From Psammoneis japonica (Eukaryota), in assembly GCA_008632985.1 (NCBI GenBank), contig QPGO01000112.1:186001-250000 (forward strand): a DNA stretch of 64,000 bases. Reading direction: 5' to 3'. Each line of letters opens with the position of its first letter. The first letter of the stretch is position 1. The position numbers and the translations under genes are program-made. Of the stretch, positions 6,419 to 58,445 are shown piece after piece. The notes below the pieces were generated by a model. That model was not told the origin of the DNA. It did not search any database and saw only the letters and a list, made by a program, of their open reading frames with translations.

Positions 6419-6442
6419 CTTGATATCAAGTATGCTCAATTT

Positions 6443-16451: not shown

Positions 16452-17435
16452 TTACTTCTGATGCTTCGCTTCCACAATTCGTGTCGATTCCTTCCACTTC
16501 AATAGATCCTCTTTCCAGTCCAGTAACTCACAGAGTGCATGAACAGTCTCATCGCAATCACCTTCTAGGAATACATCTCGCCGATGCTTTTTGTGCATGA
16601 TATTGAAATCTCCAACAAAATCTCTATTGATCAAGACACGTTTGCAACTCACCATGTCTGGAATCAAGGATACCGGTGCCACGGAAAGAGACGTTCCCAT
16701 CACCAAGAGTAGATCTGCCCTAGGCAAATCTTGCTCCAAGAGCGGCCCAAACTTCCTTGGCAATCCCTCCCCAAAAAAAACAATGTCCGGCTTCACGTAG
16801 GATCCGCAGGACTTGCAAAGCGGTGGCGGAGACTCCTTTTCGTTCTCTTCCTTCAAAATGATGGATTTGCACTTGTCGCCATCAAAGGCTCTTCCGCACT
16901 TGACGCATGAAGCTGTGCGGAAGTGACCGTGGCATTCCATTATATGCTCAAGTGGGATCTTCGCGAGAGCTTCAAGTCCATCGATATTTTGTGTGTAGTT
17001 GCGTAATAATTTCTTTTGTTTTGCAAGCAAAGCAACAAAGACATGAGTGTAGGTCGGCGAATAACGCAATCCTGGCCAAATGCTCTGTGCCAGAGAACAG
17101 AATGGCTCGGGATTCCTCTTGTAAAAGCCAACATCAAAGATCGCTTCAGCGTAAGGCAAATTATACTTTTGCAGGTTGTCATAGAGGCCTGTCCCCGGTG
17201 TACGAAAGTCGGGAATTCCAGCGCTGCACGACACACCCGCACCACTCAATACGACAATTCTTTTTGAGTTACGGATCCAATCGGCCACCAATCGAAAGTC
17301 TTCAGAGAACTTTGGAGTTGAGATATTCAACTTCTCGATCTCCTGCGTTATTTTGTTGAGTGGCTCGTCCGTGTTAGACCTAGATTTATCAGAATCATTC
17401 GAAGCCTTTGCCTCTTCGTCGTCGGAAGTAGTCAT
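16452..17435 (-). CDS. NAD+-dependent deacetylase, class I sirtuin (SIRT2/3/Hst2-like)
   Basis: GAGVSCSAGIPDFR, GLYDNL, NYTQNIDGLE, CHG, two CxxC zinc ligand pairs, KPDIVFFGE, GTSL.V.P and LINR. First ATG at 17435; the ORF is open to a GTG at 17510. Confidence 0.95.
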   Translation of the reverse strand: MTTSDDEEAKASNDSDKSRSNTDEPLNKITQEIEKLNISTPKFSEDFRLVADWIRNSKRIVVLSGAGVSCSAGIPDFRTPGTGLYDNLQKYNLPYAEAIFDVGFYKRNPEPFCSLAQSIWPGLRYSPTYTHVFVALLAKQKKLLRNYTQNIDGLEALAKIPLEHIMECHGHFRTASCVKCGRAFDGDKCKSIILKEENEKESPPPLCKSCGSYVKPDIVFFGEGLPRKFGPLLEQDLPRADLLLVMGTSLSVAPVSLIPDMVSCKRVLINRDFVGDFNIMHKKHRRDVFLEGDCDETVHALCELLDWKEDLLKWKESTRIVEAKHQK

Positions 17436-17825
17436 AATGCGGAAGAAATTCTTCTGATTGCAGGCGAACGCTGGGTGATAACTGAACCTGCCGGCAGCGA
17501 AAACAGGCACGTTTGAGAGTCTCCAAATCAGGGGCGTAATTTTCTTGGTGGGTTATATACAACGGATATCTGAGTAGTAGGTTCTGTTCACAAAACAAAG
17601 ACCGTCAATGCCAGCAACGTTTCCCGCTCGAGTGGCCTCAAGAAGCTGTCGTCGAGTCAATAGGTAGCTGTTACAAGTTGCAGAGCACAACAACAGCAAC
17701 ACTTTTTCAGAGCAAACAATCATCGACGGAAAAGCGCGGAATGCGTCCGCGCGACTCCGTCGAATGGAAAAAGAAGCCGGGGGGCGGTGTGCGGCGGGAA
17801 ATGAAAAAATGAGCTTCACATTCCC

Positions 17826-19481
17826 AGTGAACCCAATTTCCGTTCAACAACGGATTCTGCATTTTACTGAGAGTGAAAAGAGGCCACTCATTTCACATTC
17901 TTCCCCTCNNNNNNNNNNNNNNNNNNNNNNNNNNNNNNNNNNNNNNNNNNNNNNNNNNNNNNNNNNNNNNNNNNNNNNNNNNNNNNNNNNNNNNNNNNNN
18001 NNNNNNNNNNNNNNNNNNNNNNNNNNNNNNNNNNNNNNNNNNNNNNNNNNNNNNNNNNNNNNNNNNNNNNNNNNNNNNNNNNNNNNNNNNNNNNNNNNNN
18101 NNNNNNNNNNNNNNNNNNNNNNNNNNNNNNNNNNNNNNNNNNNNNNNNNNNNNNNNNNNNNNNNNNNNNNNNNNNNNNNNNNNNNNNNNNNNNNNNNNNN
18201 NNNNNNNNNNNNNNNNNNNNNNNNNNNNNNNNNNNNNNNNNNNNNNNNNNNNNNNNNNNNNNNNNNNNNNNNNNNNNNNNNNNNNNNNNNNNNNNNNNNN
18301 NNNNNNNNNNNNNNNNNNNNNNNNNNNNNNNNNNNNNNNNNNNNNNNNNNNNNNNNNNNNNNNNNNNNNNNNNNNNNTGCAGAAGCCACAACAATTTTTC
18401 AAAAACTGACCAAGGTGCCCATTGTGGCCACAACTCTGAACAACACTTGTCGTGACATGCTGGCTCAGTTTCAGCGACATGTCTGGCATTGCCAAAGTTG
18501 TCGTTTTTTGTTTTGTGGCTCAGCAGCTTGTTCAGAGCAGGCTCATTTGTTTGGAAAAGCTTCAGCTCAACTGCCCATTTCATTGCATTTTGTTGTTTTT
18601 TCTGCTGCATTTGTCTGGGCCTCTTTGTGGCATTGGTGCCCCACACAATGCAGCTGCCAATCATCTGTCGTTTGCATGAGAACAATGGCGCACTTCCCTG
18701 TTACAATCCACTGTGTCCTCATCATCAACAACTTCCAAGGTTGTTGAAAAATGACTGTTGACCTTGGCACGCAAAATTGAATTCACTGAATGTCATGTGC
18801 ATGGCTGAAAAAATCAATGCATCTGTCTGATTGTCCATCCGTCCAAATTTTGAATGCCACATGTGCGTGAAGAACCACTCTGACCGGAGGACCAACACAT
18901 TGTGGCTGCACTCTTCACAGAAAAGCCACAAGGTTTCAAAAACTAACCAAGGTGCCCAATGCAGCCAGGGGGCTCTGAACAACATTTTGTCTTGACACAC
19001 TGGCTCACTTTCAGCCACAAATCTGGCATTGCCAAAGTTCCTTGTCATTTTTTGGTTGGCGGTTGTTGACACTTTTCAAATGGCCATGGATTTGCAATGT
19101 TTTGTTTTGTCCTCTGTGACATGTTTCTGCTCAACAAGAGTGCAACTTGTCAATGACTGAAATTTTCACATGCACCCCAATTGCACCCACAGATTTTCAA
19201 CACACGTGAGCCCAGTTTCCATTCAACAACGGATTCTGCATTTTGCTGAGAGTGAAAAGAGGCCACTCATTTCACATTCTTCCCCTCCGCCACTCCTTTT
19301 GCCACACTCCGTTTGCACCGCATCACCATGCATTCACCGTGCATTCCGTGCTTCCACAAAAGAGAAGTGGGGTGTGATGGCCGCCACAGGTGCCACTCTG
19401 TGCTGAAGTTGGAGTGTGGCATGCCATCTGGCACACTGGAAGCTGATTGCATTGCAAAACAAATGAAAATCTGTGAAATGG
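17826..19481. repeat. Tandem ~1.38-kb unit, first copies (spans the gap)
   Basis: Near-identical to 33039-34423, 47966-49347 and 55544-56919. Confidence 0.85.
17909..18377. other. Assembly gap (469 N) inside the tandem unit
   Basis: Run of N. Both flanks match the tandem unit, and the size matches the corresponding empty-site segment 32852-33319. Confidence 0.95.
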
Positions 19482-22400
19482 TGACAGGATTTGAACAGGA
19501 TTTAGATGCTCGCGAAATGTCGCGCGCTGTTTAGTTTGCCGTGCACAGTTTTGTGTGCTTCAGTTCCGCGCATTCGCGCGCGATGCAGTTTGCTTTTGAG
19601 CCACAAGGCTCACAAGAATGACAACAGCAGCCTGATTGCACCGACTTGCATGTCTTTCGGCTCCTGCAACGGTCTCTGAGCGGAGACTCATCTGCCATTT
19701 AGACAGCAGCAAGGAGTCATTGTTTGAATTCTTGCCATTTGCCTTCAATTTCTGTCAGATTGACAGTCTTGCTCATTGTCAACCCATTGAGCAACCGCCA
19801 TCATTGTTGTTGATTTACCAACGACGCTGTTTCAATTCTGCGTGGACCTCCGTGTGTGTTCTACATGCATCGGCAAGTCTGCGCACATCCAACACCAGGG
19901 CATCGGCAGGAAGTTAACGTCACCGTCAAGTCTCCTTGCCGCTGGACATCTGGATTGATTGCACCACCTTTGATCGCTGAAGACATGCATTCAACGGTCA
20001 TGTCCAAGTCCATCCTTGATCCTTGTCCCTTGATGTGCCCATTCATTGGTTGACGGTCAAGAACCCTGCACATTCAAGGATCCTTGTCGCTGAAGACATG
20101 TGTGCACACACATGTCTTCACGGCCAAGAACCTGTGCCCACTCTTTGGACTGCGGTTTTTCCACCACTCTGCAAGCACACCGAGTCCATTGCACCTGATC
20201 TGCCCCGGACTGCTGGTGCTCTGCAGTTCTGCTGGGTCCACGAGGACGACTGTGAGAGCAAGTGGCCGTGATTGCAGCCTGCGTTGGGGCGAGGGTGCTT
20301 TCCCGCGTTTGTTCATTCGTCCACAGCGCCTGACGCCTGCATCAACTGGCCAGCCTGATCGGGAAATCCAACCGATGCAAAATGAGAACGGTTCGGGGGT
20401 CTTGTCCACCTCTGGTCAGCTTGCCTGCAGGGGTTTACAACCCGCTGCTCCGCTTGCAAGCAACCCAAAGCGCCGCCAGCTGCGGGTTCGGACGTGCCGG
20501 CACAACTCTGCAGACCGGATGGGAAGTTTAGCACTTGACAACGAACGGGACAGCACAACCCAGCGACTTCTGATTTTAAGGCAGTTCGAGATTTCAAGTC
20601 AAGTCTGCTTCAAGTCAAGTCCATTCTCACCCAAGTTTCAAGTCCACCTTCGCTTCCCAACAAGAATTGCTTGTCCTGACTCCGCTTTTGTCTGCCATGG
20701 TTCTCACTCGTCAGCAACAAACCGATGGTTTCGAGCACGTTGTTGGAACCGTGCTTGCCCAAGGTGCTGGGAGCCCTCTTCGTTTGGCTTTGGCCCAAGA
20801 CGGCACGGACTCGCATCAAGAACTGTTCACGTTCATGCCGTCCCAAATCAACTCGCTTGAGTGCGACAACGGCACCAATGTGATCCCTTTGCCCCACGGT
20901 TATAAGAACATGTTGGCAGCCCTGGTCAGTCTGCACATTGTCAAAGCACACGAAGGTCTTGACGTTGCCAATGACTCCTCGTTGTTCACGCATGACGAGT
21001 TCCTTGCCCACCGCCTCAGCCCCGACTGCATGTCTTCTGTGTCCATCGGCAGCTCACCCCTCGCACCTCCGCATGTCACCAACCCGACCAAGGCACGCGA
21101 CCTGGTGCGAGACTTCAAGCGAGGCATCAAGCGTGATCCCACCGCTTTCACGGCTCTCAAATCCGACAAGCAGTGGCACACTTGGCACACCTCACTTGTG
21201 GCACAAGCCCGTGCCCAAGACGTCGAGTGCACTCTAGACTCGTTGTACAAACCGACCAGCCCCGAAGACAAACTGCTCTTTGCTGAACAGCAAAAGTGCA
21301 TGTTCGCCGTCTTCGAACGCATCCTTCTCACCGACAAGGGCAAGGCTCTCATCCGCGAAAATGTGGGGTCTTCTGACGCCCAGACCGTCTGCCGCGCCTT
21401 GTCCGAGTGTGCGCTCGCCTCCACCCGCGCATCTGTCGAGTCCTCCACCTTGCTCACGCACCTTGCCACCGCACATCTTGGTGATGGTGCTTGGAAAGGT
21501 CCGACCCACGGCTTCATCCTTCATTGGCAAGACCAGTTGCGCAAGTGCGATGCACTTGTCCCGGCCAGTGACCACTTCTCTGAAGGACAGAAGCGCGTCA
21601 TGCTTGAGAATGCCACGCACCCTGTCGAGGAACTCCGTGCTGTCAAGAACCAAGCTGATCAGCATCGCACGCAGAGTGGCAAGAGCCTCACATGTGACCA
21701 ATGCTGCGGCTTGCTCCTCTCCGTGGCAGCTCAATGCGACAGTGCGTTTCAACCCAAGACAACACCTCGAGCTCCCCAACGCGCCATGTGCGCACACGAC
21801 GTCTGCTCCGAGGAACCATCCGACGATGTGTTCCACGACATTGACAGCGACATTGACGTCCTTCAGGCCAATGCTGCCTGCACCCGTGGTCCCAGCCTCA
21901 CCGGTGACCAATGGAAACGTCTCCCTCCCGACCACCAACGGATTTGGGATTCGTTGCCCCATTCCTCCAAGGCGATCATCCTTGAGCATTCTCGTCCACC
22001 TCCCCGCAACCCGCGAGCCAGCAACTGCCATGAGTCCGTTATGGCCAACCTTCATGACCAACGCCTTGGGAGTGACGGTGATGTCAACTTGTCCAACACG
22101 ACTCCTGCTGACTCTGGTGACCCCGCTCCAAATGTGGGCACCACTTCGGATGATCCCATCCTGGCGCACCTCACCAAGCGCAAGCCACTGCCACCTGGTG
22201 ATCTGCAACGTCTGTTGTCTCCTAACCAAGCCCCCAATGCCAGTCGACCGGGGCCATCCGCCGCTCCCTCCACCCCGCCAGCTTCTGCCGATGACACAGA
22301 ACTCAACGGCCGCACTTGCCGTCGCGCCAATGACCACAATGTCATTTGCTCTGCCTCTGCTCATTGCTCCACATGCACTGGTGCTCTAGTCGATCGTGGG

Positions 22401-25071
22401 GCCAACGGCGGCATTGCTGGTGACGACGTTCGCGTCATTGCACGCACCTCTCGCCAAGTCGACGTTCAGGGCATTGACGACCATCAATTGGTGGACATCC
22501 CTGTTGTCACCGCTGGCGCCGTCATTGAGACCCAGCGTGGTCCCGTCATCGCCATCCTCCATCAGTGCGCGTGCACGGGAAAGGGCAAGACCATCCATTC
22601 CTGCGGCCAGCTTGAATGGCACAAACAGGATGTCCACGATCGCTCTGTCAAGGTGCCCAACGGCTTGCAACGCATTGCCACTCCTGATGGCTGTGTCATC
22701 CCCATTGACATCAAGGCCGGCCTGCCTTGTGTTGCCATGCGACCTTGCACTGACGCCGAATGGGACACCCTGCCCCATGTCATCCTCACCGGTGATGACA
22801 CATGGGATCCTTCCGTCCTCGATCACTCTGTCACTGATGGCGACCAGTGGTGCGACGCGATCTCTGACCTGCAGGACGATCCCACTGCCAACCCATTTGA
22901 CGAACACGGCAACTGCCGTCATCGTGTCGTTGTCAACGAGACCATCATGTCCGCTTCCTTGTCTGCCGATCACGCGTCCGCCCTCGATGATCACCTCATT
23001 CCAAATGACGACGTGTTCTACGAGTGTCATCCACACGCGATTGACCCCAAGGGCGACGACGTCCCGCCCCCGGAGCGCACTGTACAGCCCAAGGACCCCC
23101 CCTTCGAGTCTCTTCGGCCTCACTTTGGCTTCCTGCCTGCCGATGCGGTCCGTCGTGCTTTTGACTGCACCACGCAGTGCGCCCGCATGCCTGCCGGCAC
23201 ACACCTTAGGAAGGCCTGCAAATCACCCAACCCCGCCCTTAACGTGCACCGCCGCAACGAGCCTGTCGCCACTGACACCATTTGTGCCGACACCCCGGCT
23301 GTCGACTCTGGTTGCACCAGCGCCCAACTGTTTGTTGGCACCGAGTCTACCGTCACTGACGTCTGCAGCACCAAGACGGACAAAGAGTTTGTCAACACAC
23401 TCGAGGATCAGATCCGTGAGCGTGGTGCCCCATCCAAACTCATTGGCGACCGTGCTCAAGTTGAGATCAGCAACAAAGTGCTCGGGATCCTACGAGCCCT
23501 CTTCATCTCCAGCTGGCAAAGTGAGCCTCACCAGCAACAACAAAACTTTGCCGAGCGTCGACACCAGACCGTGAAGCGCATGGCAAACACTGTCATGGAT
23601 CATTTTGGTTTGCCCGCCCACACATGGCTGCTGGCGCTCATGTGTGTGTGCTTCATGCTCAACCATGCAGCGTCCCCACGTCTCCACTGGTGCACGCCCC
23701 TCGAGACTCTCACTGGCTCCACCCCGGACATCAGCCCATTGCTTTGCTTTCACTGGTGGGAACCCGTGTGCTTCCACCTCAATGACTCCGATTGGCCGTC
23801 CGAATCCCGTGAGTTGCGTGGACGCTTCGTTGGCATTGCTGAGCACGTCGGCCACCAGATGACCTTCAAGATTCTCTCTGACAAGACTCAGAAGATCCTC
23901 CACTGGTCCAACGTACACTCCGCTGCCACCGATCCTGCCGTTCGAAACCTGCATCTTGATCCTCCTGATGGGAGCCACCTGAACCCATCATCAAATCTCG
24001 CCATGACGACAACCCCGTCGATTCTCCTGATGGGAAGATCAGGACACCCAAGATGCCAGTTTTCGATCCGCAAGACATCATCGTACCTTCCTCATGCAGC
24101 CACAAGAGGACGGACAATGCCACAGAGCTCGCATCGTCAAGGCCGTCGAAGACCATGAATGGAAAGTGAACGGCAATCCCGAGCTTGCTAAGTTCGTCTG
24201 CTCTGTCAACAACGATGAATGCGAGGAAGTCCTTGCCTGCAACGACATCATGAATCACATGAGCAAGAAGACAAAGACACTGCTGTTTGGAAATTCCGAC
24301 GCATCGTGTCACACGAAGGACCTCTGAAGCCTCATGACCCAACCTGGAAAGGCTCAAGCTACAACATCATGCTTGAATGGGAAAGTGGGGAGATCACGTC
24401 CGAGCCTCTCGCCATCATTGCCAAGGATGACCCCGTCACCTGCGCCATCTATGCACGAGAGAACGGACTTCTCGACACGGATGGCTGGAAGCGGTTCCGC
24501 ACCATCGCGAGGCACCAAAAGAAGCCATTTCGCATGGCCAACCAAGCCAAGCTTCGCTCCTTCCGCACTGCACCTCGCCACAAGTGCGGATGCAAAGTTC
24601 CCCGGAACTGCAAACACGCCATGTCACTAGACGAGCGCAACGGCAACCGCAAATGGGGAGACGCAACTAATCTCGAGATGGCCAACTCGGGGAATACGAA
24701 GTCTTCCATGACTGCGGCCCTTCGAGTCTTCCACTCCTCCTGCGGGACACAAGAAGATCCGAGTGCACCTGGTGCACGACGTGAAACACGACGGTCGCCA
24801 CAAGGCACGACTCGTAGCCGATGGGCACCTCACGGACATGCCTGTCGACAGTGTCCACTTCGGAGCAGTCTCCCTCCGTGGCCTTCGGTTGATGATTTTC
24901 CTGGCCGAACTCAACGAGTTGGAGACATGGGCCACCGACATTGGCAATGCCTGTCTTGAAGCCACCACTGAGGAGAAGCTCTACATTGCAGCCGGACCCG
25001 GATTTGGCAAACTCCAAGGACACATCCTTGTCATCCACAAGGCCCTGCATGGGCTGCGCAGCTCCGGTCTC

Positions 25072-28000
25072 AGTCGAGATGCAGTCCCACAGCTGAGTGG
25101 GATGGACAAGACCTCGGAGGTTGGCAGCAATGTGAGTGGCGACAGAGGCAAACAGACGCTTGTTGAAAGTCGTTGTCCAGAAATTGTGACGAATGTCGTT
25201 GCTTCTGTTTGAATCGATTTTGTGATGAGCCAATTATTTTCGAAGAGAAAATCTGAGTCTGGGTTGCAGTCGTGAGATGTGACCAGAATGACGTTGAGTC
25301 GTGACTCTCCCTCTCAACCGAGAGAGCTCACCAGCCCACAAGAGCCTTTCCAGCCGCACGGAACGCATCGGTCCGTAGTCCCTTCGTGAACTGATCGGCC
25401 AGTTGCTCTAGAGTGCTGACAGGTTGGATGTCGATCTCCAATTGTTCGACTTTAGTCCTAAACCAGTGGTGCGGGGTGCCGATGTGTTTGGTTCGCGGAG
25501 ACAACTTGGGCGTGCGTGCGAACTTGAGGCACGCGGAGTTATCTTCGTACACAACGGACGCAGGCAGGACATTCTGCTCTACAGGCGAGTCATCGGTGCC
25601 TTGGGTTGCGAGCTCAAAAGCCTTGGAGTGAGTCGTGATGGGGTTTTGGTGGTCAGACTTTCCAAGTGCGTGGTGGTTGGGCTCCTTGAGAACTTCACGA
25701 GTGGGGATGAGATCGCGCATGGCTTGAGAAAGTGCGACATGTTCCGCTTCCATGGTCGACAATGCTGCAAGAGTCTGCAGCTTGGACACCCAGACAAGCG
25801 GGCAGCCGGCGCAGCAGACAAGGTGTCCAGTCCTGGACTTGACAGAAACTGGGTCTTGACCATCTTCCACACCAAATGACCCCGCGAAGTCAGAATCGAC
25901 GCAACAATCAACTCGATGATCTTGCGCAGGCTTGAGAATGAGACCTTCAGCAGCAGTTGCTTTGAGGTGTCGGAGCATCCGCTTCACTGCAGCAGCGTGG
26001 GACGCTCGGGGCGCAAACGAGAATCGAGCTGCTTGATGTGTGGCATGTGCAATGTCTGGCTGGCTGTTCGCTGCCAAGCACATCAACATTCCAACAACTG
26101 AGCGATAATCGCAGGGTTCATCAAAAGGCAGGCCGTCCGTGTTGGCACCAACAGCCGCAGGTAGAGCTGGAGTAGATGCTCCATTGCAATCCTGCATCTG
26201 TGCGGCACGCAGGACCTTGTCAATTAGACCGGGTTGAGTGAGTAGAAATCGACCCTCGGAGAGCTTTTCGATCTTGACACCGAGAAAGTTGCCGACTTCT
26301 CCTTCGTCTCTAAGTTCAAATGCGTGGCGATGTTCGTCGTCGGAGACTCCTAACTTGCGAATTTCGGCTTCTAGAGCTTCAGCTGAAGCTCCAGCAAAAA
26401 CGGTGTCGTCGACGTGCACCACACACATCATGCCCTCTTTGAAATACAAACAGGGATCTATGGCTGAAGGTGCCCATCCGCGCTTGGTTAAACCAGCTCG
26501 CAACTTCTCGCAGAAGCCCTTGGGAGACTGTTTTAGGCCGCACAGTCCTTTCAAAAGTTTGAGAACCATGTTGAGTCCCGACCTTGGCGCAAATCCCTTC
26601 GGCGGTGTTATGCAAACTTCTTCAGCGATGTCAGCTTGGCAAAAGGCTGTGGCACAGTCCACCTGTCATGCAGCCCATCCCTCCTTTAATGCCGCAGTGA
26701 GCATGAGTCGGATGCTGGACCATTGCACAACCGGCGCGCAGGTTTCGAAGCAGTCGACTCCTTCTTTCTGCAATCACCGCGGACGCAGTGTCGGGCCTTG
26801 TGCTTGAGAGGGGTTCCATCTGGGAGTCTCTTGAGCTTTGGTGCCCATGTGCCTGGAAGTGCATTCATGTGCAGCTGACGCTCGACTGCTTTCCAGGCTC
26901 GACGATGTGTGAGTGCGTTGACTTCAATTTTCATCGCCTTGATCCATTCGTTGGCGTCCGGACCTTTCAGAGCATTGTGTGACGAAGGCACATCAGGGTC
27001 CTTGGTTTTCTTGCTAGCTGCGCATGCTCGTGGATCGCCGATGTTGATGGCACCACTGTCCAAATCCATCTCGAGAGTCACCAGATGCGCTGGTTGAGCC
27101 TCGTGTCCGATCGGCAGCGGCATTTCCTCAACGGAGCTGAAGCAGACCTCATCTACAAACTTGGCAGAGTTGAACTGTCCCTTGGTTGACCGTGAAGACC
27201 GTCGCAGCCCTGGTGCTCCCTCTGGATTCGTCACAGGAGGTGTCTTGACTGGGGGAGGAGCTGTTGGTTCCGTCGGCGCTTCGGGTGGCGGAAGTCCGTT
27301 GCCATCTTGAGGTTCAGGTGGCTGAATTGGCGCAGAGTCCGCAGAGTCTGCAGGTTTTTGAGTCGCAGGTGGGACTGGTGGCGTTGGCTGCTGAGTCGCA
27401 GGTGCGACTCGATCGGTGACGTCGTCGCGAGAAATGGGTGAGTCCGGCACAGTGATCGATGGAGTGGGCTCAAAATGCCCGCGAATGCGTGTTGCTCTGG
27501 CCAGTTCTCGTTCTTTGCATTGACGCTCTGGAGGGGCAAGCCACTCATCGTGTAAATGAACTGCCTGATCCTTCTCCAGAGGGATGCACATCGATTGGTT
27601 GAGGCACAAGTGTTCCCAGTGATCAGGTGGATCCGTCTCCCTCTCGATTGATGGTGCGGCAGTGAAGAGATCGTCAAAGACCACATGATGCTGAGGTGCA
27701 ACACTTCCAGTTTGAAGATTGAGGACCAAAGGAACCTCACTGGAATGGATGGCACTGAGTCCCACGAACAAAGCGCGACAAGTGCGAGGCTCCCAACGCG
27801 GGAGCTTCTTCCCGGAAGCGAGGGTCGGGTCAAGTGCGTACGCTGGACATCCCCATGTGTGAATGTCGCGCAACCGATGTCTTGGCACTGTCGAACCGGT
27901 GAAAATGTCCGCTGGGCAATGTCCTTTGGAATTTGGGGTGACATTGTAGATGTGCGTGGCACAAGAAACTGCCATGGGCCACAGGGAGCTGTCAATCCCC

Positions 28001-30920: not shown

Positions 30921-30922
30921 GC

Positions 30923-45890: not shown

Positions 45891-45891
45891 T

Positions 45892-46451: not shown

Positions 46452-47965
46452 GTTCCGCTGGCACGAGCGCTTCGCCGACTGCCTGCGAGCTGAAGGCTTC
46501 TTCCCCTGCCACGCCGAACCTGACATTTGGGTGCACAGGAACGGCGACCACCATGAGCACATTGCCGTTTATGTGGATGACCTCGCCATTGCTGTGAAGG
46601 ACCCTCAATCTTTCGTCGACACTCTCACGGAAAAGTGCAAGTTCAAGCTCAAGGGTGCGGGACCCATTGAGTTCCATCTGGGTTGCGACTTTTCCCGGGA
46701 TCCCGACGGCACCTTGAGCCTGTCTCCGCGCAAGTACATCAAGCGCATGGTCGACAGCTGCACCCGACTGTTTGGGGAGAAACCCACCACCAACACCCTG
46801 TCACCTCTGGAGAAGGGTGACCACCCCGAACTGGACACTTCCGAACTGCTGGAGCCCGACGGCATTCACAAGTTCCAGTCCCTTGTTGGCTCACTCCAAT
46901 GGGCAGTGTCTCTTGGTCGAATTGACATCACCACGGCCGTCATGTCACTCTCCAGCTTCCGAGCTGCGCCCCGTCAAGGCCACTTGGATCGTGCCAAACG
47001 CGTCTGTGGGCACCTCTCCAAGATGCGACACAGCGCTCTCCACGTTCGCACGGAAGAGCCCGACTGTTCGGATCTCCCTGCTCCGGCCTGTGAATGGATG
47101 CATTCCGTGTGCGGCGAAGCAGAAGAGATGATCCCGAAGGACGCTCCACTGCCCCTTGGCAAGTTCGTCACTGCCACCCACTGCGTCGATGCAAACTTGT
47201 GCCATTGCATGCTCACCGGACGCTCTGTCATGGGAATGCTCCACTTCCTCAACAAATTCCCGGCTGATTGGTTCTCCAAGAAGCAAGCCACTGTGGAGAC
47301 TGCGACCTGCGGGTCTGAATTTGTTGCCGCAAGGACTTGTGTCGAGCAGATTGTCGACCTGCGCATCACCCTGCGCTGCCTCGGCGTCCCGACCCACAAT
47401 GTCAGTTGCATGTTCGGTGACAACAAGTCAGTTGTAGACAGTGCCACCATCCCGCACTCCAAGTTACACAAGCGACACACTGCACTGTTGTTCCACCGTG
47501 TGCGTGAGGCAATCACCTCTGGTTGCCTTGAGCTCCACTTCATCGAAGGCTCCCGCAACCCTGCTGACATTCTCAGCAAGCATTGGGGTTGCTTCCAAAT
47601 CTGGGACCTTCTCCGCCCCCTCATGTTCTGGAACTTCATTCCATCCAAAGTCGAATCTGTTTCTGTGACTCCTCAAGCAAACTGGGGAGTGACAGGATTT
47701 GAACAGGTTTCAGGTGCGCGCGAAATGTCGCACGCTGTTTAGCCCACCGCGCACAGTTTTGTGTGCTTTAGTTCCGCGCGTTTCTGCGCGATGCAGTTTG
47801 CTTTCGAGCCACAAGGCTCACAAGAATGACAACAGCAGCCCGATTGCACCGACTTGCACGTCTTTCGGCTCCTGTGACGGTCTCTGAGCGGAGACTCATC
47901 TGCCATTTAGACAGCAGCAAGGAGTCATTGTTTGAATTCTTGCCATTTGCCTTCAATTTCTGTCA

Positions 47966-49347
47966 AATGGGGTCACTGTGTTGCATCTCTTTCATCGCTG
48001 CGTGCTCACTGGCTCCCCTCGACCCATGTTGGCATGACTGCGTTGCTGCACTGCTGCTCAGCCAAGCCACAGATTGGCTCGTGTGCCTTCTTTTTGTGGA
48101 TCTTGGGTGCCCTCCCAAGAACAAGAGGTGCTTCCACTTTTCCCAAATGTGAGCAGCCACAGCTGCAATGTGCACTTTTCTTGCTGGGCACAAGAAGCGA
48201 AGAGGTCAGCTGGCCAGAAACAAAATTTTGCAGCTGCGCTCTCTCTGCAGAAGCCACAACAATTTTTCAAAAACTGACCAAGGTGCCCATTGTGGCCACA
48301 ACTCTGAACAACACTTGTCGTGACATGCTGGCTCAGTTTCAGCGACATGTCTGGCATTGCCAAAGTTGTCGTTTTTTGTTTTGTGGCTCAGCAGCTTGTT
48401 CAGAGCAGGCTCATTTGTTTGGAAAAGCTTCAGCTCAACTGCCCATTTCATTGCATTTTGTTGTTTTTTCTGCTGCATTTGTCTGGGCCTCTTTGTGGCA
48501 TTGGTGCCCCACACAATGCAGCTGCCAATCATCTGTCGTTTGCATGAGAACAATGGCGCACTTCCCTGTTGCAATCCACTGTGTCCTCATCATCAACAAC
48601 TTCCAAGGTTGTTGAAAAATGACTGTTGACCTTGGCACGCAAAATTGAATTCACTGAATGTCATGTGCATGGCTGAAAAAATCAATGCATCTGTCTGATT
48701 GTCCATCCGTCCAAATTTTGAATGCCACATGTGCGTGAAGAACCACTCTGACCGGAGGACCAACACATTGTGGCTGCACTCTTCACAGAAAAGCCACAAG
48801 GTTTCAAAACTAACCAAGGTGCCCAATGCAGCCAGGGGCTCTGAACAACATTTTGTCTTGACACACTGGCTCACTTTCAGCCACAAATCTGGCATTGCCA
48901 AAGTTCCTTGTCATTTTTTGGTTGGCGGTTGTTGACACTTTTCAAATGGCCATGGATTTGCAATGTTTTGTTTTGTCCTCTGTGACATGTTTCTGCTCAA
49001 CAAGAGTGCAACTTGTCAATGACTGAAATTTTCACATGCACCCCAATTGCACCCACAGATTTTCAACACACGTGAGCCCAGTTTCCATTCAACAACGGAT
49101 TCTGCATTTTGCTGAGAGTGAAAAGAGGCCACTCATTTCACATTCTTCCCCTCCGCCACTCCTTTTGCCACACTCCGTTTGCACCGCATCACCGTGCATT
49201 CACCGTGCATTCCGTGCTTCCACAAAAGAGAAGTGGGGCATGATGGCCGCCACAGGTGCCACTCTGTGCTGAAGTTGGAGTGTGGCATGCCATCTGGCAC
49301 ACTGGAAGCTGATTGCATTGCAAAACAAATGAAAATCTGTGAAATGG
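47966..49347. repeat. One complete ~1.38-kb tandem unit between element A copies 2 and 3
   Basis: Runs from TSD to TSD and contains an internal sub-repeat (accaaggtgccca...tctggcattgccaaagt) twice. Confidence 0.9.
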
Positions 49348-52300
49348 TGACAGGATTTGAACAGGATTTAGATGCTCGCGAAATGTCGCGCGCTGTTTAA
49401 TTTACCGCGCACAGTTTTGTGTGCTTTCACCAGCTGCGGGTTCGGACGTGCCGGCACAACTCTGCGGACCGGATGGGAAGTTTAGCACTTGACAACGAAC
49501 GGGACAGCACAACCCGGCGACTTCTGATTTTAAGGTAGTTCGAGATTTCAAGTCAAGTCCGCTTCAAGTCAAGTCCATTCTCACCCAAGTTTCAAGTCCA
49601 CCTTCGCTTCCCAACAAGAATTGCTTGTCCTGACACCGCTTTTGTCTGCCATGGTTCTCACTCGTCAGCAACAAACCGATGGTTTCGAGCACGTTGTTGG
49701 AACCGTGCTTGCCCAAGGTGCTGGGAGCCCTCTTCGTTTGGCTTTGGCCCAAGACGGCACGGACTCGCATCAAGAACTATTCACGTTCATGCCATCCCAA
49801 ATCGACTCGCTTGAGTGCGACAACGGCACCAATGTGATCCCTTTGCCCCGCGGTTATAAGAACATGTTAGCAGCCCTGGTTAGTCTGCACATTGTCAAAG
49901 CACACGAAGGTCTTGATGTTGCCAATGACTCCTCGTTGTTCACGCATGACGAGTTCCTTGCCCACCGCCTCAGCCCCGACTGCATGTCTTCTGTGTCCAT
50001 CGGCAGCTCACCCCTCGCACCTCCGCATGTCACCAACCCGACCAAGGCACGCGACCCGGTGCGAGACTTCAAGCGAGGCATCAAGCGTGATCCCACCGCT
50101 TTCACGGCTCTCAAATCCGACAAGCAGTGGCACACTTGGCACACCTCACTTGTGGCACAAGCCCGTGCCCAAGACGTCGAGTGCACTCTAGACTCGTTGT
50201 ACAAACCGACCAGCCCCGAAGACAAACTGCTCTTTGCTGAACAGCAAAAGTGCATGTTCGCCGTCTTCGAACGCATCCTTCTCACCGACAAGGGCAAGGC
50301 TCTCATCCGCGAAAATGTGGGGTCTTCTGATGCCCAGACCGTCTACCGCGCCTTGTCCGAGTGTGCGCTCGCCTCCACCCGCGCATCTGTCGAGTCCTCC
50401 ACCTTGCTCACGTGCCTTGCCACCGCACATCTTGGTGATGGTGCTTGGAAAGGTCTGACCCACGGCTTCATCCTTCATTGGCAAGACCAGTTGCGCAAGT
50501 GCGAGGCACTTGTCCTGGCCAGTGACCACTTCTCTGAAGGACAGAAGCGCATCATGCTCGAGAATGCCGCGCACCCTGTCGAGGAACTCCGTGCTGTCAA
50601 GAACCAAGCTGATCAGCATCGCACGCAGAGTGGCAAGAGCCTCACATGTGACCAATGCTGCGGCTTGCTCCTCTCCGTGGCAGCTCAATGCGACAGTGCA
50701 TTTCAACCCAAGACGACACCTCGAGCTCCCCGACGCGCCATGTGCGCACACGACGTCTGCTCCGAGGAACCATCCGACGATGTGTTCTACGACATTGACA
50801 GCGACATTGACGTCCTTCAGGCCAATGCTGCCTGCACCCGTGGTCCCAGCCTCACCGGTGACCAATGGAAACGTCTCCCTCCCGACCACCAACAGATTTG
50901 GGATTCGTTGCCCCATTCCTCCAAGGCGATCATCCTTGAGCATTCTCGTCCGCCTCCCCGCAACCCGCGAGCCAGCAACTGCCATGAGTCCGTTATGGCC
51001 AACCTTCATGACCAACGCCTTGGGAGTGACGGTGATGTCAACTTGTCCAACACGACTCCTGCTGACTCTGGTGACCCCGCTCCAAATGTGGGTGCCACTT
51101 CGGATGATCCCATCCTGGCGCACCTCACCAAGCGCAAGCCACTGCCACCTGGTGATCTGCAACATCTGTTGTCTCCTAACCAAGCCCCCAATGCCAGTCG
51201 ACCGGGGCCATCCGCCGCTCCCTCCACCCCGCCAGCTTCTGCCGATGACACAGAACTCAACGGCCGCACTTGCCGTCGTGCCAATGACCACAATGTCATT
51301 TGCTCTGCCTCTGCTCATTGCTCCACATGCACTGGTGCTCTAGTCGATCGTGGGGCCAACGGCGGCATTGCTGGTGACGACGTTCGCGTCATTGCACGCA
51401 CCTCTCGCCAAGTTGACGTTCAGGGCATTGACGACCATCAATTGGTGGACATCCCTGTTGTCACCGCTGGCGCCATCATTGAGACCCAGCGTGGTCCCAT
51501 CATCGCCATCCTCCATCAGTGCGCGTGCACGGGAAAGGGCAAGACCATCCATTCCTGCGGCCAGCTTGAATGGCACAAACAGGATGTCAACGATCGCTCT
51601 GTCAAGGTGCCCAACGGCTTGCAACGCATTGCCACTCCTGATGGCTGTGTCATCCCCATTGACATCAAGGCCGGCCTGCCTTGTGTTGCCATGTGACCTT
51701 ACACTGACGCCGAATGGGACACCCTGCCCCATGTCATCCTCACCGGTGATGACACATGGGATCCTTCCGTCCTCGATCACTCTGTCACTGATGACGACCA
51801 GTGGTGCGACGCGATCTCTGACCTGCAGGACGATCCCACTGCCAACCCATTTGACGAACACGGCAACTGCCGTCATCGTGTCGTTGTCAACGAGACCATC
51901 ATGTCCGCTTCCTTGTCTGCCGATCACGCGTCCGCCCTTGATGATCACCTCATTCCGAATGACGACGTGTTCTGCGAGTGTCATCTACACGCGATTGACC
52001 CCAAGGGCGACGACGTCCCGCCCCCGGAGCGCACTGTACAGCCCAAGGACCCCCCCTTCGAGTCTCTTCGGCCTCACTTTGGCTTCCTGCCTGCCAATGC
52101 AGTCCGTCGTGCTTTTGACTGCACCACGCAGTGCGCCCGCATGCCCACCGGTGCACACCTCAGGAAGGCCTGCAAATCACCCAACCCCGCCCTCAACGTG
52201 CACCGCCGCAACGAGCCTGTCGCCACTGACACCATTTGTGCCGACACCCCGGCCGTCGACTCTGGTTGCACCAGCGCCCAACTGTTTGTTGGCACCGAGT

Positions 52301-55300
52301 CTACCGTCACTGACGTCTGCAGCACCAAGACGGACAAAGAGTTTGTCAACACACTCAAGGATCAGATCCGTGAGCGTGGTGCCCCATCCAAACTCATTGG
52401 CGACCGTGCTCAAGCTGAGATCAGCAACAAAGTGCTCGGGATCCTACGAGCCCTCTTCATCTCCAGCTGGCAAAGTGAGCCTCACCAGCAACAACAAAAC
52501 TTTGCCGAGCGTCGACACCAGACCGTGAAGCGCATGGCGAACACTGTCATGGATCGTTTTGGTTCGCCCGCCCACACATGGCTGCTGGCACTCATGTGTG
52601 TGTGCTTCATGCTCAACCATGCAGCGTCCCCACGTCTCCACTGGTGCACGCCCCTCGAGACTCTCACTGGCTCCACCCCGGACATCAGCCCATTGCTTCG
52701 CTTTCACTGGTGGGAACCCGTGTGCTTCCACCTCGATGACTCCGATTGGCCGTCCGAATCCCGTGAGTTGCGTGGACGCTTCGTTGGCATTGCTGAGCAC
52801 GTCGGCCACCAGATGACCTTCAAGATTCTCTCTGACAAGACTCAGAAGATCCTCCACTGGTCCAACGTACACTCCGCTGCCACCGATCCTGCCGTTCGAA
52901 ACCTGCATCTTGATCCTCCTGATGGGGAGCCACCTGAACCCATCATCAAATCTCGCCATGACGACAACCCCGTCGATTCTCCTGATGGGGAGATCAGGAC
53001 ACCCAAGATGCCAGTTTTCGATCCGCAAGACATCATCGGACGCACCTTCCTCATGCAGCCACAAGAGGACGGACAACGCCACAGAGCTCGCATCGTCAAG
53101 GCCGTCGAAGACCATGAATGGAAAGTGAATGGCAATCCCAAGCTTGCTAAGTTCGTCTGCTCTGTCAACAACGACGAATGCGAGGAAGTCCTTGCCTGCA
53201 ACGACATCATGAATCACATTGAGCAAGAAGACGAAGACACTGCTGTTTGGAAATTCCGACGCATCGTGTCACACGAAGGACCTCTGAAGCCTCATGACCC
53301 AACCTGGAAAGGCTCAAGCTACAACATCATGCTTGAATGGGAAAGTGGGGAGATCACGTCCGAGCCTCTCGCCATCATCACCAAGGACGACCCCGTCACC
53401 TGCGCCATCCATGCACGAGAGAACGGACTTCTCGACACGGATGGCTGGAAGCGGTTCCGCACCATCGCGAGGCACCAAAAGAAGCCATTTTGCATGGCCA
53501 ACCAAGCCAAGCTTCGCTCCTTCCGCACTGCACCTCGCCACAAGTGCAGATGCGAAGTTCCCCGGAACTGCAAACACGCCATGTCACTAGACGAGCGCAA
53601 CGGCAACCGCAAATGGGGAGACGCAACTAATCTCGAGATGGGCCAACTCGGGGAATACGAAGTCTTCCATGACTGCGGGCCCTTCGAGTCTTCCACTCCT
53701 CCTGCGGGACACAAGAAGATCCGAGTGCACCTGGTGCACGACGTGAAACACGATGGTCGCCACAAGGCACGACTCGTAGCCGATGGGCACCTCACAGACG
53801 TACCTGTCGACAGTGTCCACTCCGGAGCAGTCTCCCTCCGTGGCCTTCGGTTGATGATTTTCCTGGCCGAACTCAACGAGTTGGAGACATGGGCCACCGA
53901 CATTGGCAATGCCTGTCTTGAAGCCACCACTGAGGAGAAGCTCTACATTGCAGCCGGACCCGAATTTGGCAAACTCGAAGGACACATCCTTGTCATCCAC
54001 AAGGCCCTGCATGGACTGCGCAGCTCCGGTCTTCGCTGGCACGAGCGCTTTGCCGACTGCCTGTGAGCTGAAGGCTTCTTCCCCTGCCGCGCCGAACCTG
54101 TCATTTGGATGCGCAGGAATGGCGACCACCATGAGCACATTGCCGTTTATGTGGATGACCTCGCCATTGCTGTGAAGGACCCTCAATCTTTCGTCGACAC
54201 TCTCACGGTAAAGTGCAAGTTCAAGCTCAAGGGTGCGGGACCCATTGAGTTCCATCTGGGTTGCGACTTTTCCCGGGATCCCGACGGCACCTTGAGCCTG
54301 TCTCCGCGCAAGTACATCAAGTGCATGGTCGACAGCTGCACCCGACTGTTTGGGGAGAAACCCACCACCAACGCCCTGTCACCTCTGGAGAAGGGTGACC
54401 ACCCCGAACTGGACACTTCCGAACTGCTGGAGCCCAATGGCATTCACAAGTTCCAGTCCCTTGTTGGCTCACTCCAATGGGCAGTGTCTCTTGGTCGAAT
54501 TGACATCACCACGGCCATCATGTCACTCTCCAGCTTCCGAGCTGCGCCCCCTCAAGGCCACTTGGATCGTGCCAAACGCGTCTGTGGGCACCTCTCCAAG
54601 ATGCGACACGGCGCTCTCCGCGTTCGCACGGAAGAGCCCGACTGTTCGGATCTCCCTGCTCCGGCCTGTGAATGGATGCATTCCGTGTACGGCGAAGCAG
54701 AAGAGATGATCCCGAAGGACGCTCCACCGCCCCTTGGCAAGTTCGTCACTGCCACCCACTGCGTCGATGCAAACTTGTGCCATTGCATGCTCACCGGACA
54801 CTCTGTCATGGGAATGCTCCACTTCCTCAACAAATTCCCGGCTGATTGGTTCTCTAAGAAGCAAGCCACTGTGGAGACTGCGACCTGCGGGTCTGAATTT
54901 GTTGCCGCAAGGACTTGTGTCAAGCAGATTGTCGACCTGCGCATCACCCTGCGCTGCCTCGGCGTCCCGACCCGTAATGTCAGTCACATGTTCGGTGACA
55001 ACAAGTCAGTTGTAGACAGTGCCACCATCCCGCACTCCAAGTCACACAAGCGACACACCGCACTGTCGTTCCACCGTGTGCGTGAGGCAATCACCTCTGG
55101 TTGCCTTGAGCTCCACTTCATCGAAGGCTCCTGCAACCCTGCTGACATTCTCAGCAAGCATTGGGGTTGCTCCCAAATCTGGGACCTTCTCCGCCCCCTC
55201 ATGTTCTGGAACTTCATTCCATCCAAAGTCGAATCTGTTTCTGTGACTCCTCAAGCAAACTGGGGAGTGACAGGATTTGAACAGGATTCAGGTGCGCGCG

Positions 55301-55543
55301 AAATGTCGCACGCTGTTTAGCCCACCGCGCACAGTTTTGTGTGCTTTGGTTCCGCGCGTTTGCGCGCGATGCAGTTTGCTTTCGAGCCACAAGGCTCACA
55401 AGAATGACAACAGCAGCCCAATTGCACCGACTTGCACGTCTTTTGGCTCCTGTGACGGTCTCTGAGCGGAGACTCATCTGCCATTTAGACAGCAGCAAGG
55501 AGTCATTGTTTGAATTCTTGCCATTTGCCTTCAATTTCTGTCA
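49348..55543 (+). mobile_element. Ty1/copia element A, copy 3. No nested insert; ~0.9-kb deletion of 5' LTR and leader at ~49430; 3' LTR 55268-55543
   Basis: Single-frame gag-pol from 49651 to 55320 broken only by two CGA->TGA stops (51694, 54064); TSD AATGG. Confidence 0.95.
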
Positions 55544-57255
55544 AATGGGGTCACTGCATTGCATCTCTTTCATCGCTGCGTGCTCACTGGCTCCCCTCGA
55601 CCCATGTTGGCATGACTGCGTTGCTGCACTGCTGCTCAGCCAAGCCACAGATTGGCTCATGTGCCTTGTTTTTGTGGATCTTGGGTGCCCTCCCGAGAAC
55701 AAGAGGTGCTTCCACTTTTCCCAAATGTGAGCAGCCACAGCTGCAATGTGCACTTTTCTTGCTGGGCACAAGAAGCGAAGAGGTCAGCTGGCCAGAAACA
55801 AAATTTTGCAGCTGCGCTCTCTATGCAGAAGCCACAACAATTTTTCAAAAACTGACCAAGGTGCCCATTGTGGCCACAACTCTGAACAACACTTGTCTTG
55901 ACATGCTGGCTCAGTTTCAGCCACATGTCTGGCATTGCCAAAGTTGTCGTTTTTTGTTTTGTGGCTCAGCAGCTTGTTCAGAGCAGGCTCATTTGTTTGG
56001 AAAAGCTTCAGCTCAACTGCCCATTTCACTGCATTTTGTTGTTTTTTCTGCTGCATTTGTCGGGGCCTCTTTGTGGCATTGGCACCCCACACGGTGCAGC
56101 TGCCAATCATCTGTCGTTTGCATGAGAACAATGGCGCACTTCCCTGTTACAATCCACTGTGTCCTCATCATCAACAACTTCCAAGGTTGTTGAAAAATGA
56201 CTGTTGACCTTGGCACGCAAAATTGAATTCACTGAATGTCACGTGCATGGCTGAAAAAATCAATGCATCTGTCTGATTGTCCATCCGTCCAAATTTTGAA
56301 TGCCACGTGCGCGTGAAGAACCACTCTGACCGGAGGACCAACACATTGTGGCTGCACTTTTCACAGAAAAGCCACAAGGTTTCAAAAACCAACCAAGGTG
56401 CCCAATGCAGCCAGGGGGCTCTGAACAACATTTTGTCTTGACACACTGGCTCACTTTCAGCCACAAATCTGGCATTGCCAAAGTTCCTTGTCATTTTTTG
56501 GTTGGCGGTTGTTGACACTTTTCAAATGGCCATGGATTTGCAATGTTTTGTTTTGTCCTCTGTGACATGTTTCTGCTCAACAAGAGTGCAACTTGTCAAT
56601 GACTGAAATTTTCACATGCACGCCAATTGCACCCACAGATTTTCAACACACGTGAACCCAGTTTCCGTTCAACAATGGATTCTGCATTTTGCTGAGAGTG
56701 AAAAGATGCCACTTGTTTCACATTCTTCCCTCCGCCACTCCTTTTGCCACACTCCATTTGCACTGCATCACCGTGCATTCACCGTGCATTCCGTGCTTCC
56801 ACAAAAGAGAAATGGGGTGTGATGGCCACCACACTCTGAGCTGAAGTTGGAGTGTGGCACGCCATCTGGCACATTGGAAGCTGACTGCATTACAGAACAA
56901 ATGAAAATCTGTGAAATGGGGTCACTGTGTTGCATCTCTTTCATTGCTGCATGCTCGCTGGCTCCCCCCTCAACCCATGTTGGCATGACTGCATGTCATT
57001 GCTGCACTGCTGCTCAGCCAAGCCACAGATTGGCCCCTGTGCCTTCTTTTTGTGGATCTTGGGTGCCCTCCAGAGAACAAGAGGCACTTCCACTTTTCGC
57101 AAATGTGAGCAGCCACATCTGCAACATGCACTCTTCTTGCTGGGCACAAGAAGCAAAGGTCAGCTGGCCAGAAACAAAATTTTGCAGCTGCGCACTCTCT
57201 GCAGAAGCCACAACAATTTTTCAAAAACTGACCAAGGTGCCCATTGTGGCCACAA
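55544..57255. repeat. Tandem units with a second empty target site (AATGG at 56915-56919)
   Basis: Same empty-site unit subtype as around 33034. Confidence 0.9.
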
Positions 57256-58170
57256 CTGTGCGGAAGTGACCGTGGCATTCCATCACATGCTCAAGTGGGA
57301 TCTTCGTGAGAGCTTCAAGTCCATCAATATTTTGTGTGTAGCTGCGCAACAATTTCTTTTGTTTTGCAAGCAAAGCAACAAAGACATGAGTGCAGGTCGG
57401 CGAATGACGCAATCCTGGCCAAATGCTCTATGCCAGAGAACAGAATGGCTCGGGATTCCTCTTGTAAAAACCAACATCAAAGATCGCTTCAGCGCAAGGC
57501 AAATCACACTTTTGCAGGTTGTCATGGAGGCCTGTCCCCGGTGTACGAAAGTCGGGAATTCCAGCGCTGCACGACACACCCGCACCACTCAATGCGACAA
57601 TTCTTTTTGAGTTGCGGATCCAATCGGCCACCAATCGAAAGTCTTTAGAGAACTTTGGAGTTGAGATGTTCAACTTCTCGATCTCCTGCGTTATTTTGTT
57701 GAGTGGCTCGTCCGTGTTAGACCTAGATTTATCAGAATCATTCGAAGCCTTTGCCTCTTCGTTGTCGGAAGCAGTCATAATGCGGAAGAAATTCTTCTGA
57801 TTGCAGGCGAACGCTGGGTGACAACTGAACCTGCCGGCAGCGAAAACAGGCACGTTTGAGAGTCTCCAAATCAGGGGCGTAATTTTCTTGGTGGGTCACA
57901 TACAACGGATGTCTGAGCAGCAGGTTCTGTTCACAAAACAAAGACTGTCAATGCCAGCAACGTTTCCCGCTCGAGTGGCCTCAAGAAGCTGTCGTCGAGT
58001 CAACAGGCAGCTGTTACAAGTTGCAGAGCACAACAACAGCAACACTTTTTCAGAGCAAACAATCATCGACGGAAAAGCGCGGAATGCGTCCGCGCGACTC
58101 CGTTGAATGGAAAAAGAAGCCGGGGGGCGGTGTGCGGCGGGAAATGAAAAAATGAGCTTCACATTCCCAG
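57256..58170 (-). pseudogene. Duplicated 5' half and upstream region of the sirtuin gene; hypermutated, with a nonsense mutation
   Basis: Colinear with 16913-17827 (offset 40,343). Tyr->Cys/His changes (GLYDNLQKYNLPY -> GLHDNLQKCDLPC) and a CAG->TAG stop at 57428-57430. Confidence 0.95.
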
Positions 58171-58445
58171 TGAACCCAATTTCCGTTCAACAACGGATTC
58201 TGCATTTTACTGAGAGTGAAAAGAGGCCACTCATTTCACATTCTTCCCCTCCGCCACTCCTTTTGCCACACTCCATTTGCACTGCATCACCGTGCACTCA
58301 CCGTGCATTCCGTGCTTCCACAAAAGAGAAGTGGGGTGTGATGGCCGCCACAGGTGCCACTCTGTGCTGAAGTTGGAGTGTGGCATGCCATCTGGCACAC
58401 TGGAAGCTGATTGCATTGCAAAACAAATGAAAATCTGTGAAATGG

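Follow-up and report, generated by a model that had tools for sequence, protein, structure and literature searches.

What removes nearly every TA dinucleotide from one part of a diatom contig while the neighbouring genes keep theirs, and does the responsible process read the bases beside its target? The question is raised by a 64,000-nt window of contig QPGO01000112.1 of Psammoneis japonica, the window being the whole stretch of DNA that was analysed and the one sample from which all event counts given here were drawn. Per-kb dinucleotide counts yielded observed/expected (O/E) values for TA of 0.44-0.94 in 4001-17000, where CG stands at about 1, and of 0.00-0.33 in 1-3000 and 18001-64000. CG is also almost gone in 1-3000, 32-34 kb and 59-64 kb, and TG and CA are up to 2-3-fold up. 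The TA-normal part is made of host genes (Nrap domains and a SIR2 open reading frame, ORF), the TA-poor part of repeats. We find that the DNA of the repeat blocks underwent TpA-specific A:T to G:C mutation, by which TA became TG or CA. Each TA was split into two half-sites, each with the A of one strand, and the TAY half-site (Y, pyrimidine; R, purine), which is 5'-R-T-A if T is the base that changes, was converted about 2-3 times faster than TAR. A TpA-erasing A:T to G:C process with a bias of about 2-3-fold towards a 3' pyrimidine has thus very probably been at work in this DNA. As the best overall explanation, at a probability of roughly 0.55, we propose TpA-specific, flank-biased mutation by a DNA adenine deaminase acting at 5'-T-A.

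The direction of change could be read from two copies of a sirtuin sequence, one on the genic side and the other within the repeats:

16452..17510, minus strand: intact sirtuin (SIR2) ORF, the unmutated reference (Pfam SIR2, E=4e-52)
16913..17908, minus strand: copy a, the first 199 sirtuin codons and 398 bases upstream, with normal TA content (self-BLAST)
57256..58251, minus strand: copy b, a mutated pseudo-copy within the repeat block (self-BLAST)

Copies a and b align over 996 bases without a gap at 96.9% identity. Mutation polarity in this pair is known, because copy a belongs to an intact SIR2 ORF, whereas truncation and a stop at codon 142 mark copy b, with 15 of 199 residues altered, six of them from Tyr to Cys or His. 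Among the 31 differences, 22 are TA in copy a and CA (16) or TG (6) in copy b, five are CG changed to TG or CA, two run in the reverse direction and two are of other kinds, and the TA count drops from 35 in copy a to 15 in copy b. One reverse case is an ordinary C to T change creating a TAG stop in copy b. Copy a holds at most two candidate changes, one of which proved instead to be a TA gained by copy b, versus the 22 in copy b. Since the copy in the repeat block was hit and its genic twin was left untouched, targeting follows location and not duplication as such, and the cue of location is probably chromatin state.

In the orientation that shows A to G, the 22 events are TAC (9), TAT (8), TAA (4) and TAG (1), and this recount agrees with an earlier note on this DNA, which had listed 17 TAY, four TAA and one TAG. 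The fate of the 35 TA of copy a differed by class: 12 of 16 RTAR, 6 of 9 RTAY, 4 of 8 YTAY and 0 of 2 YTAR sites were hit. The only two YTAR sites of copy a (TTAG at 17375 and CTAG at 17381) are retained in copy b, so the same note was right that no YTAR site was hit here, the statement covering two sites. Counted as half-sites, the sirtuin pair alone gave 17/42 for TAY and 5/28 for TAR, which is suggestive only (Fisher p=0.066). In each of three TTATAY stretches (16941-16943, 17162-17164 and 17554-17556), both neighbouring TA were lost on the same strand, by TTATAT to TCACAT twice and TTATAC to TCACAC once; these stretches supply three of the four sirtuin TAA events.

The bias was then measured between repeat copies. 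Alignment columns were built from self-BLAST pairs of at least 300 bases and at least 90% identity, each column being counted once and columns with more than seven members or with inconsistent neighbours being excluded. TA was borne by 173 columns, of which 90 have TA in all copies, 45 are TA/CA, 27 are TA/TG, seven show all three and four are of other kinds. The 169 usable columns provide 338 half-sites with 86 hits, distributed by 3' base as C 41/109, T 13/44, A 19/87 and G 13/98, or 54/153 for TAY versus 32/185 for TAR (odds ratio 2.6, p=2.5e-4). With the sirtuin columns removed, the values were 35/110 and 26/154 (p=0.005). A competing-risk fit put the 3' Y rate at 2.4 times the R rate (p=2e-4) and gave no significant effect of the base at -2 (1.4, p=0.14); in a naive fit the -2 effect had been larger (1.7, p=0.02), and it shrank to this value when competition between half-sites was modelled. 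At sites with TAY on one strand only, the TAY strand was the one changed in 40 cases versus 14 (p=5e-4), or 27 versus 9 without the sirtuin columns. Copy polarity was assumed in these counts, and the background of ordinary transitions was estimated from AA/AG and GA/GG. About 29 of 84 TA/TG polymorphisms correspond to this estimated background; its subtraction lifts the Y/R ratio to 2.8-3.2 and leaves hit shares of 0.31 for C, 0.18 for T, 0.13 for A and 0.06 for G.

The same columns define how narrowly the process acts. Per half-site, polymorphism amounts to 24.7% for TA/TG (86/348), which is 19 times the AA/AG rate (24/1863, 1.3%) and 42 times the GA/GG rate (13/2214, 0.6%); CG/TG stands at 9.4%. 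A to G changes at ApT lacking a 5' T or C (AAT and GAT) were found in 12/851 cases versus 24/3313 for the other adenines outside TpA and CpA, the GAA context lies at background level (4/542), and transversions are scarce (40 of 434 variable columns). The decay of CpG is parallel to the loss of TA, but separate and slower. Between repeat copies, in columns across 16913-59900, CpG decay by C to T shows a mild 5' effect of its own, with ACG at 59/463, TCG at 56/568, GCG at 40/526 and CCG at 35/485.

Strand choice could also be followed at conserved tyrosines in three ORFs of the copia-type elements:

20667..24158, plus strand: N-terminal part of the outer copia-type polyprotein (21 conserved Tyr columns, now Cys 14, His 2, Tyr 1, Phe 4)
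40272..44747, minus strand: pol ORF of the nested copia, 1491 aa, RVT_2 (37 conserved Tyr columns, now Cys 13, His 11, Tyr 4, Phe 4, other 5)
46411..47742, plus strand: reverse transcriptase (RT) part of the outer copia-type element (16 conserved Tyr columns, now Cys 9, His 3, Tyr 2, Phe 2)

The nested pol was aligned with the best 60 of 120 listed relatives, the outer N-terminal part with 45 of 150 relatives (those of at least 600 residues, one Tyr-poor relative being left out) and the outer RT part with 13 relatives 1300 or more residues long. A column was taken as conserved when at least half of the relatives carry Tyr. Cys at such a column means that the A of the sense strand was changed, and His that the antisense A was changed, in which case the 3' neighbour of the changed A is the complement of the base preceding the codon. 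Across the three ORFs, the 74 conserved Tyr columns hold Cys 36, His 16, Tyr 7, Phe 10 and other residues 5. The 52 mutated Tyr codons divide into Cys 23:His 2 in the YTAY context and Cys 13:His 14 in the RTAY context (Fisher p=7.8e-4), the purine or pyrimidine class of the flank being ancestral because transitions cannot alter it. This test is independent of both the baseline and the polarity assumption.

Some further features of these ORFs were recorded. At the RTAY Tyr codons of 20667-24158 (plus strand) and 40272-44747 (minus strand), the changed A lies on the plus strand of the window in 18 cases versus 6 (p=0.02), and in 19 versus 8 when ORF 46411-47742 (plus strand) is added; the excess may reflect an asymmetry linked to replication or read-through transcription and not to gene orientation. 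The closest relative of the outer N-terminal part, a public protein of 959 aa with 49% identity (P0121), contains 0.73% Tyr and 3.0% Cys, and two other relatives (P0122 and P0124) contain 2.7-3.6% Tyr and 0.7-1.1% Cys; the source organism of P0121 may show the same erosion. For the nested copia, no close DNA relatives were found in viral_contigs, and a metagenome scan returned only six loci (L001-L006) of 28-35% identity, too distant for a site-by-site comparison. Its protein relatives are at most 55% identical over most of the query, with no unmutated sister copy among the matches listed.

If the two half-sites of a TA decay at different rates, the sites that remain should carry the mark, and they were compared between the genic stretch and the repeats, including the two most heavily altered ends of the window:

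1..3000: repeat block with TA and CG nearly fully erased (TA O/E 0.02-0.03, CG O/E 0.05-0.15)
3300..16900: genic stretch (Nrap and others), the TA-normal baseline (614 TA; YTAR 19%, RTAY 28%)
59825..64000: repeat block with TA and CG nearly fully erased (nine TA left: five YTAR, three YTAY, one RTAR)

Five TA remain in 1-3000, namely TTAG at 53, 634, 1998 and 2389 and CTAA at 2397, just as the earlier note had described them, and such a five-out-of-five result has p=2.5e-4 given that YTAR make up 19% of genic TA. The class shares of TA shift from 19% YTAR and 28% RTAY in the genes (n=614) to 39% and 13% in non-redundant repeats (n=125; chi-squared=28.8, p=5.5e-7). We defined a survival index as the TA share of a region's own pyrimidine-purine steps, in repeats relative to genes. 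It comes to 0.239 for YTAR, 0.118 for the mixed class (YTAY/RTAR) and 0.052 for RTAY (-ln 1.43, 2.14 and 2.96), in the order that had been predicted for tetranucleotide depletion. An additive two-half-site model (kR=0.72, kY=1.48, kY/kR 2.07) predicts 2.20 for the mixed class and fits the observed 2.14. RTAY is thus lost fastest, YTAY and RTAR at an intermediate rate and YTAR slowest because the two half-site rates add. The three most eroded blocks, 9176 bases in total, retain 18 TA, of which 11 are YTAR; at the density of genes they would hold about 414 TA with about 79 YTAR among them. The RCAR:RTGR ratio in the fully erased blocks is 1.53-1.65 versus 1.11 in the genes, a rise that is significant only in 59825-64000 (p=0.011).

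The statement that YTAR sites survive must therefore be qualified. Their loss is slower, as the index of 0.239 indicates, but they are not spared: TA makes up 0.037 of the YyrR steps in repeats versus 0.156 in genes, so that about 76% of YTAR sites were lost, and 15 of 44 YTAR columns in the repeats are polymorphic between TA and TG or CA. YTAR sites decay about half as fast, instead of surviving, and the TAY preference is a quantitative one, about 2-3-fold in rate and stronger on which strand changes.

How could such a pattern come about? In the mechanism we propose, an enzyme would deaminate adenine to hypoxanthine in DNA at 5'-T-A, its pocket would favour a 3' pyrimidine, it would act on either strand, and the product would be fixed as G at replication. 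Judged from the mutational pattern, we put adenine deamination, as the chemistry, at slightly better than even odds. An attack on thymine would be written in the same letters: a modification of repeat chromatin, for example a 5-hydroxymethyluracil-type base at 5'-R-T-A, would lead to T to C, with A to G as its mirror image, and all counts fit R-T-A to R-C-A as well as T-A-Y to T-G-Y. Dinoflagellates carry hydroxymethyluracil preferentially at TpA, a statement for which no supporting paper was found in the literature searched. We nevertheless consider thymine attack improbable, as to our knowledge no thymine modification yields T to C at near 100%, and the sole published study of TpA mutation type argues, in its available text, for adenine deamination, without proof. 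A mutator that reads TpA only, with the TAY bias arising from ancestral repeat composition, mis-polarised polymorphisms or kinship among the copies, is quite improbable. It would accommodate the p of 0.066 of the sirtuin sample alone, the 29 or so of 84 polymorphisms that are possibly background, a gene baseline possibly unfit for transposons, and the lack of a shift in product ratio in unit 19500-31900; yet the direction and size of the bias agree across four lines that are partly independent, the baseline-free Tyr-codon test gave Cys 23:His 2 versus 13:14, and the bias grows after background removal.

Other sources of A to G changes fare worse. Polymerase eta favours A to G at WA, TA included, so error-prone repair synthesis by an enzyme of this kind in repeat chromatin was considered; a check of AA to AG changes, proposed beforehand for this purpose, found them not raised. 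Because AA/AG stands at 24/1863, near GA/GG (13/2214), versus 86/348 for TA/TG, there is no WA signature like that of polymerase eta, and transversions, at 40 of 434 variable columns, are rare; we regard this source as very improbable. Retrotransposons are the main victims here, as would be expected if an ADAR- or ADAT-like enzyme edited A to I in transposon RNA before reverse transcription. Editing before retrotransposition does not fit, however, because both strands are changed, about equally, in each element (Cys 36 and His 16 overall, 13:14 at RTAY) and because a fragment of a host gene and upstream non-coding DNA were hit. Tandem copies, moreover, went on to differ once they had been duplicated, and the UAG preference of ADAR contrasts with TAG being hit least, so that RNA editing is hardly credible. 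It is just as hard to credit that the loss of TA and CG arose from faulty base calling in heavily modified repeat DNA. Some long-read assemblies can contain systematic errors due to modified bases, and the library type of the public run is unrecorded; on the other hand, contigs of that run contain 92% of sampled words from the genic stretch, and a record of 704 letters covers 18378-19038 with 0 other letters at a word depth of 144 (about 68 recurs elsewhere). An assembly artefact is unlikely because the public-run contigs match the sequence, repeat DNA included, and the copies differ site-specifically and show ordinary pseudogene damage. Compared with 18378-33209, the public run has 1004 variable places, 866 of them transitions.

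Several observations weigh against a flank-reading adenine deaminase, or against parts of it. Since TA is its own reverse complement, A to G on one strand and T to C on the other are indistinguishable by sequence. The TAY preference is modest, at about 2-3-fold, and on the minus strand of the window alone it keeps its direction and is non-significant (30/83 versus 22/86, p=0.18). The order within the two classes is unstable, being C>T>A>G among the events and T>>C>=G>A in the decay model based on the gene baseline, and the RCAR:RTGR ratio of unit 19500-31900 shows no rise (1.07). Same-strand runs, as a processive single-strand enzyme would leave, were not found (56 of 101 adjacent pairs versus 54 +/- 4.3 expected). 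Polarity among the repeat copies is assumed, about a third of the polymorphisms are possibly ordinary transitions, and the copies in the window have common ancestry and come from few families.

The remaining points of this kind concern the identity of the enzyme. The natural substrate of TadA is UACG in tRNA-Arg, and the target A of tRNA deaminases is preceded by U (position 33-34); likewise, a T stands 5' to the target A here. For the 3' C of TadA, C is top among the events (41/109), with T close (13/44) and strongest in the decay model. Unlike in UACG, a preference for G at +2 was not found among the repeat columns, with TACG at 17/37, TACC at 8/18, TACT at 8/12 and TACA at 8/42. According to the available text of the two reports, a TadA-8e variant edits DNA in the YAC context (PMC13109818), and animal BjADAT2, the only ADAT2 of natural origin shown to act on adenines in DNA, has a preference for GAA (PMC10354150). 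Unlike with BjADAT2, GAA (4/542) and GA/GG (13/2214) are at background here. The earlier note had held that a TadA-like enzyme fits the motif better than ADAR or ApT methylation. The part directed at the latter two stands, an ADAR preference and ApT both being disfavoured (TAG 13/98, ApT 12/851); the part in favour of TadA is reduced to compatibility by an effect of 2-3-fold, the near equality of T and C, the missing +2 G and the GAA preference of ADAT2. From these sequence contexts, an agent of the TadA/ADAT family, which would be a host deaminase with the HxE-PCxxC motif working on DNA, would be a doubtful candidate, a compatible lead and not a finding.

Between the genic sirtuin copy and the repeat-block copy, the window is occupied by large repeats:

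18378..33319: repeat unit 1, an outer copia-type element (plus strand) with a second copia nested in it (minus strand) (self-BLAST, TA O/E, depth profile)
33320..47900: repeat unit 2, 97.9% identical to unit 1 across 12.9 kb (self-BLAST)
47901..57255: more copies of the outer element, these lacking the nested copia, and short repeats (self-BLAST)

The units are about 15 kb long and 98% alike, with the outer copia-type element (plus strand) in each and the nested copia (minus strand) in two of three. Unit 1 has a TA O/E of 0.01-0.31 with CG mostly retained, and matches 33320-46214 and 49430-54032 by self-BLAST. In the public run, the summed contig word depths of the outer element (19368-25307 and 31248-32237) are about 44,000-225,000 versus about 68 for single-copy DNA, so that this family is of very high copy number; the nested copia has a contig word depth of about 4,000-7,000. 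The window contains 82 ORFs of 150 aa or more, many of them overlapping, with long ORFs in all six frames of 18000-64000. Long ORFs occur in TA-erased DNA because TAA and TAG stops were lost, and they are no evidence of genes.

The borders of the genic stretch were also inspected. On its left side, TA O/E is 0.15-0.17 in 3001-3500, so that TA depletion reaches about 500 bases deeper into the genic side than CpG depletion, which ends at about 3000; a run of about 15 G lies at 2804-2818 within the fully eroded block. On its right side, an assembly gap of 469 N (17909-18377) follows straight after the genic sirtuin copy, because of which the join between genic and repeat DNA is not proven by sequence; a single N lies at 33210. 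Among named relatives of the Nrap protein, the diatom Seminavis robusta supplies the best one, its Nucleolar protein 6 (37% identity); oomycetes reach 24-26%.

The flank preference serves as a mechanistic fingerprint, which excludes polymerase eta, ApT methylation and an ADAR-like preference. It also provides a read-out for assays of candidate enzymes, namely TAC and TAT above TAA and TAG on either strand, and a natural A-to-G DNA enzyme acting at a defined motif would be of interest to base editing.

Among known systems, Neurospora and other fungi have repeat-induced point mutation (RIP), which depends on a cytosine methyltransferase of RID/DIM-2 type, changes C to T at CpA, creates TpA and hits both copies of a duplication. 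The two processes are alike in that dense transitions at a dinucleotide target are confined to repeat and transposon DNA, copies are disabled and nearby genes are clean. Unlike in RIP, TpA is destroyed here and G+C rises, the TA count going from 35 in copy a to 15 in copy b, and one copy alone was mutated, with 22 TA losses in copy b versus at most two candidates in copy a. RIP indices developed for fungi miss TA erasure, and long false ORFs fill the erased DNA. Double-stranded RNA is what ADARs act on, and repeat-derived substrates are their usual targets; a preferred 5' U or T and repeat-derived targets are common to ADARs and the process described here. In the available text of a review, the hot spots of ADAR1/2 are 5'UAG (PMC10661471). 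Unlike with ADAR, where 3' G is favoured, TAG is the least hit half-site here (13/98, or 0.06 after background correction).

The closest parallel is Bigelowiella natans, in which Mettrop et al., in a bioRxiv preprint of 2026 (10.64898/2026.01.13.699255), describe, in the available text, TpA-only A:T to G:C hypermutation of integrated giant-virus and virophage DNA. Mutation-accumulation lines revealed these mutations as de novo events, with rates of about 1e-7 to 1e-6 per site and generation in part of the lines, and TpA-poor coding sequences were enriched for transposon domains; an adenine deaminase, with an ADAT2-like candidate, was proposed there without proof (10.64898/2026.01.13.699255). 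TpA hypermutation itself is thus already known, and in the literature searched, the Bigelowiella supplementary tables being outside it, we found no description of it in a diatom and no flank preference. As far as the text on Bigelowiella goes, the two cases agree in that almost only A:T to G:C changes at TpA occur, giving TpG or CpA by strand (22 of 31 differences here), and in that the changes are confined to particular stretches of the nuclear genome, the genic sirtuin copy being spared here. They differ in host and target, a chlorarachniophyte with integrated viruses there and a diatom with copia elements, unclassified repeats and a fragment of a host gene here, and in kind of evidence, since events were seen de novo in Bigelowiella and the evidence here is comparative, with CpG decay alongside. 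The 3' pyrimidine preference was measured here, and the main text on Bigelowiella gives no context beyond the dinucleotide, its supplement possibly holding the flanks. The motif can now be compared with the 231 published de novo mutations of Bigelowiella, which bears on whether the same machinery operates in two distant algal lineages. It is possible, with the odds against it, that a dedicated DNA adenine deaminase, guided by chromatin and reading 5'-T-A-Y, is common to diatoms (stramenopiles) and chlorarachniophytes (rhizarians). If so, a shared natural 'A base editor' would rewrite transposons, inserted viral DNA and whatever else lies in silenced domains, a genome defence with a chemistry unlike that of any other known eukaryotic defence and with the motif as its enzymatic fingerprint.

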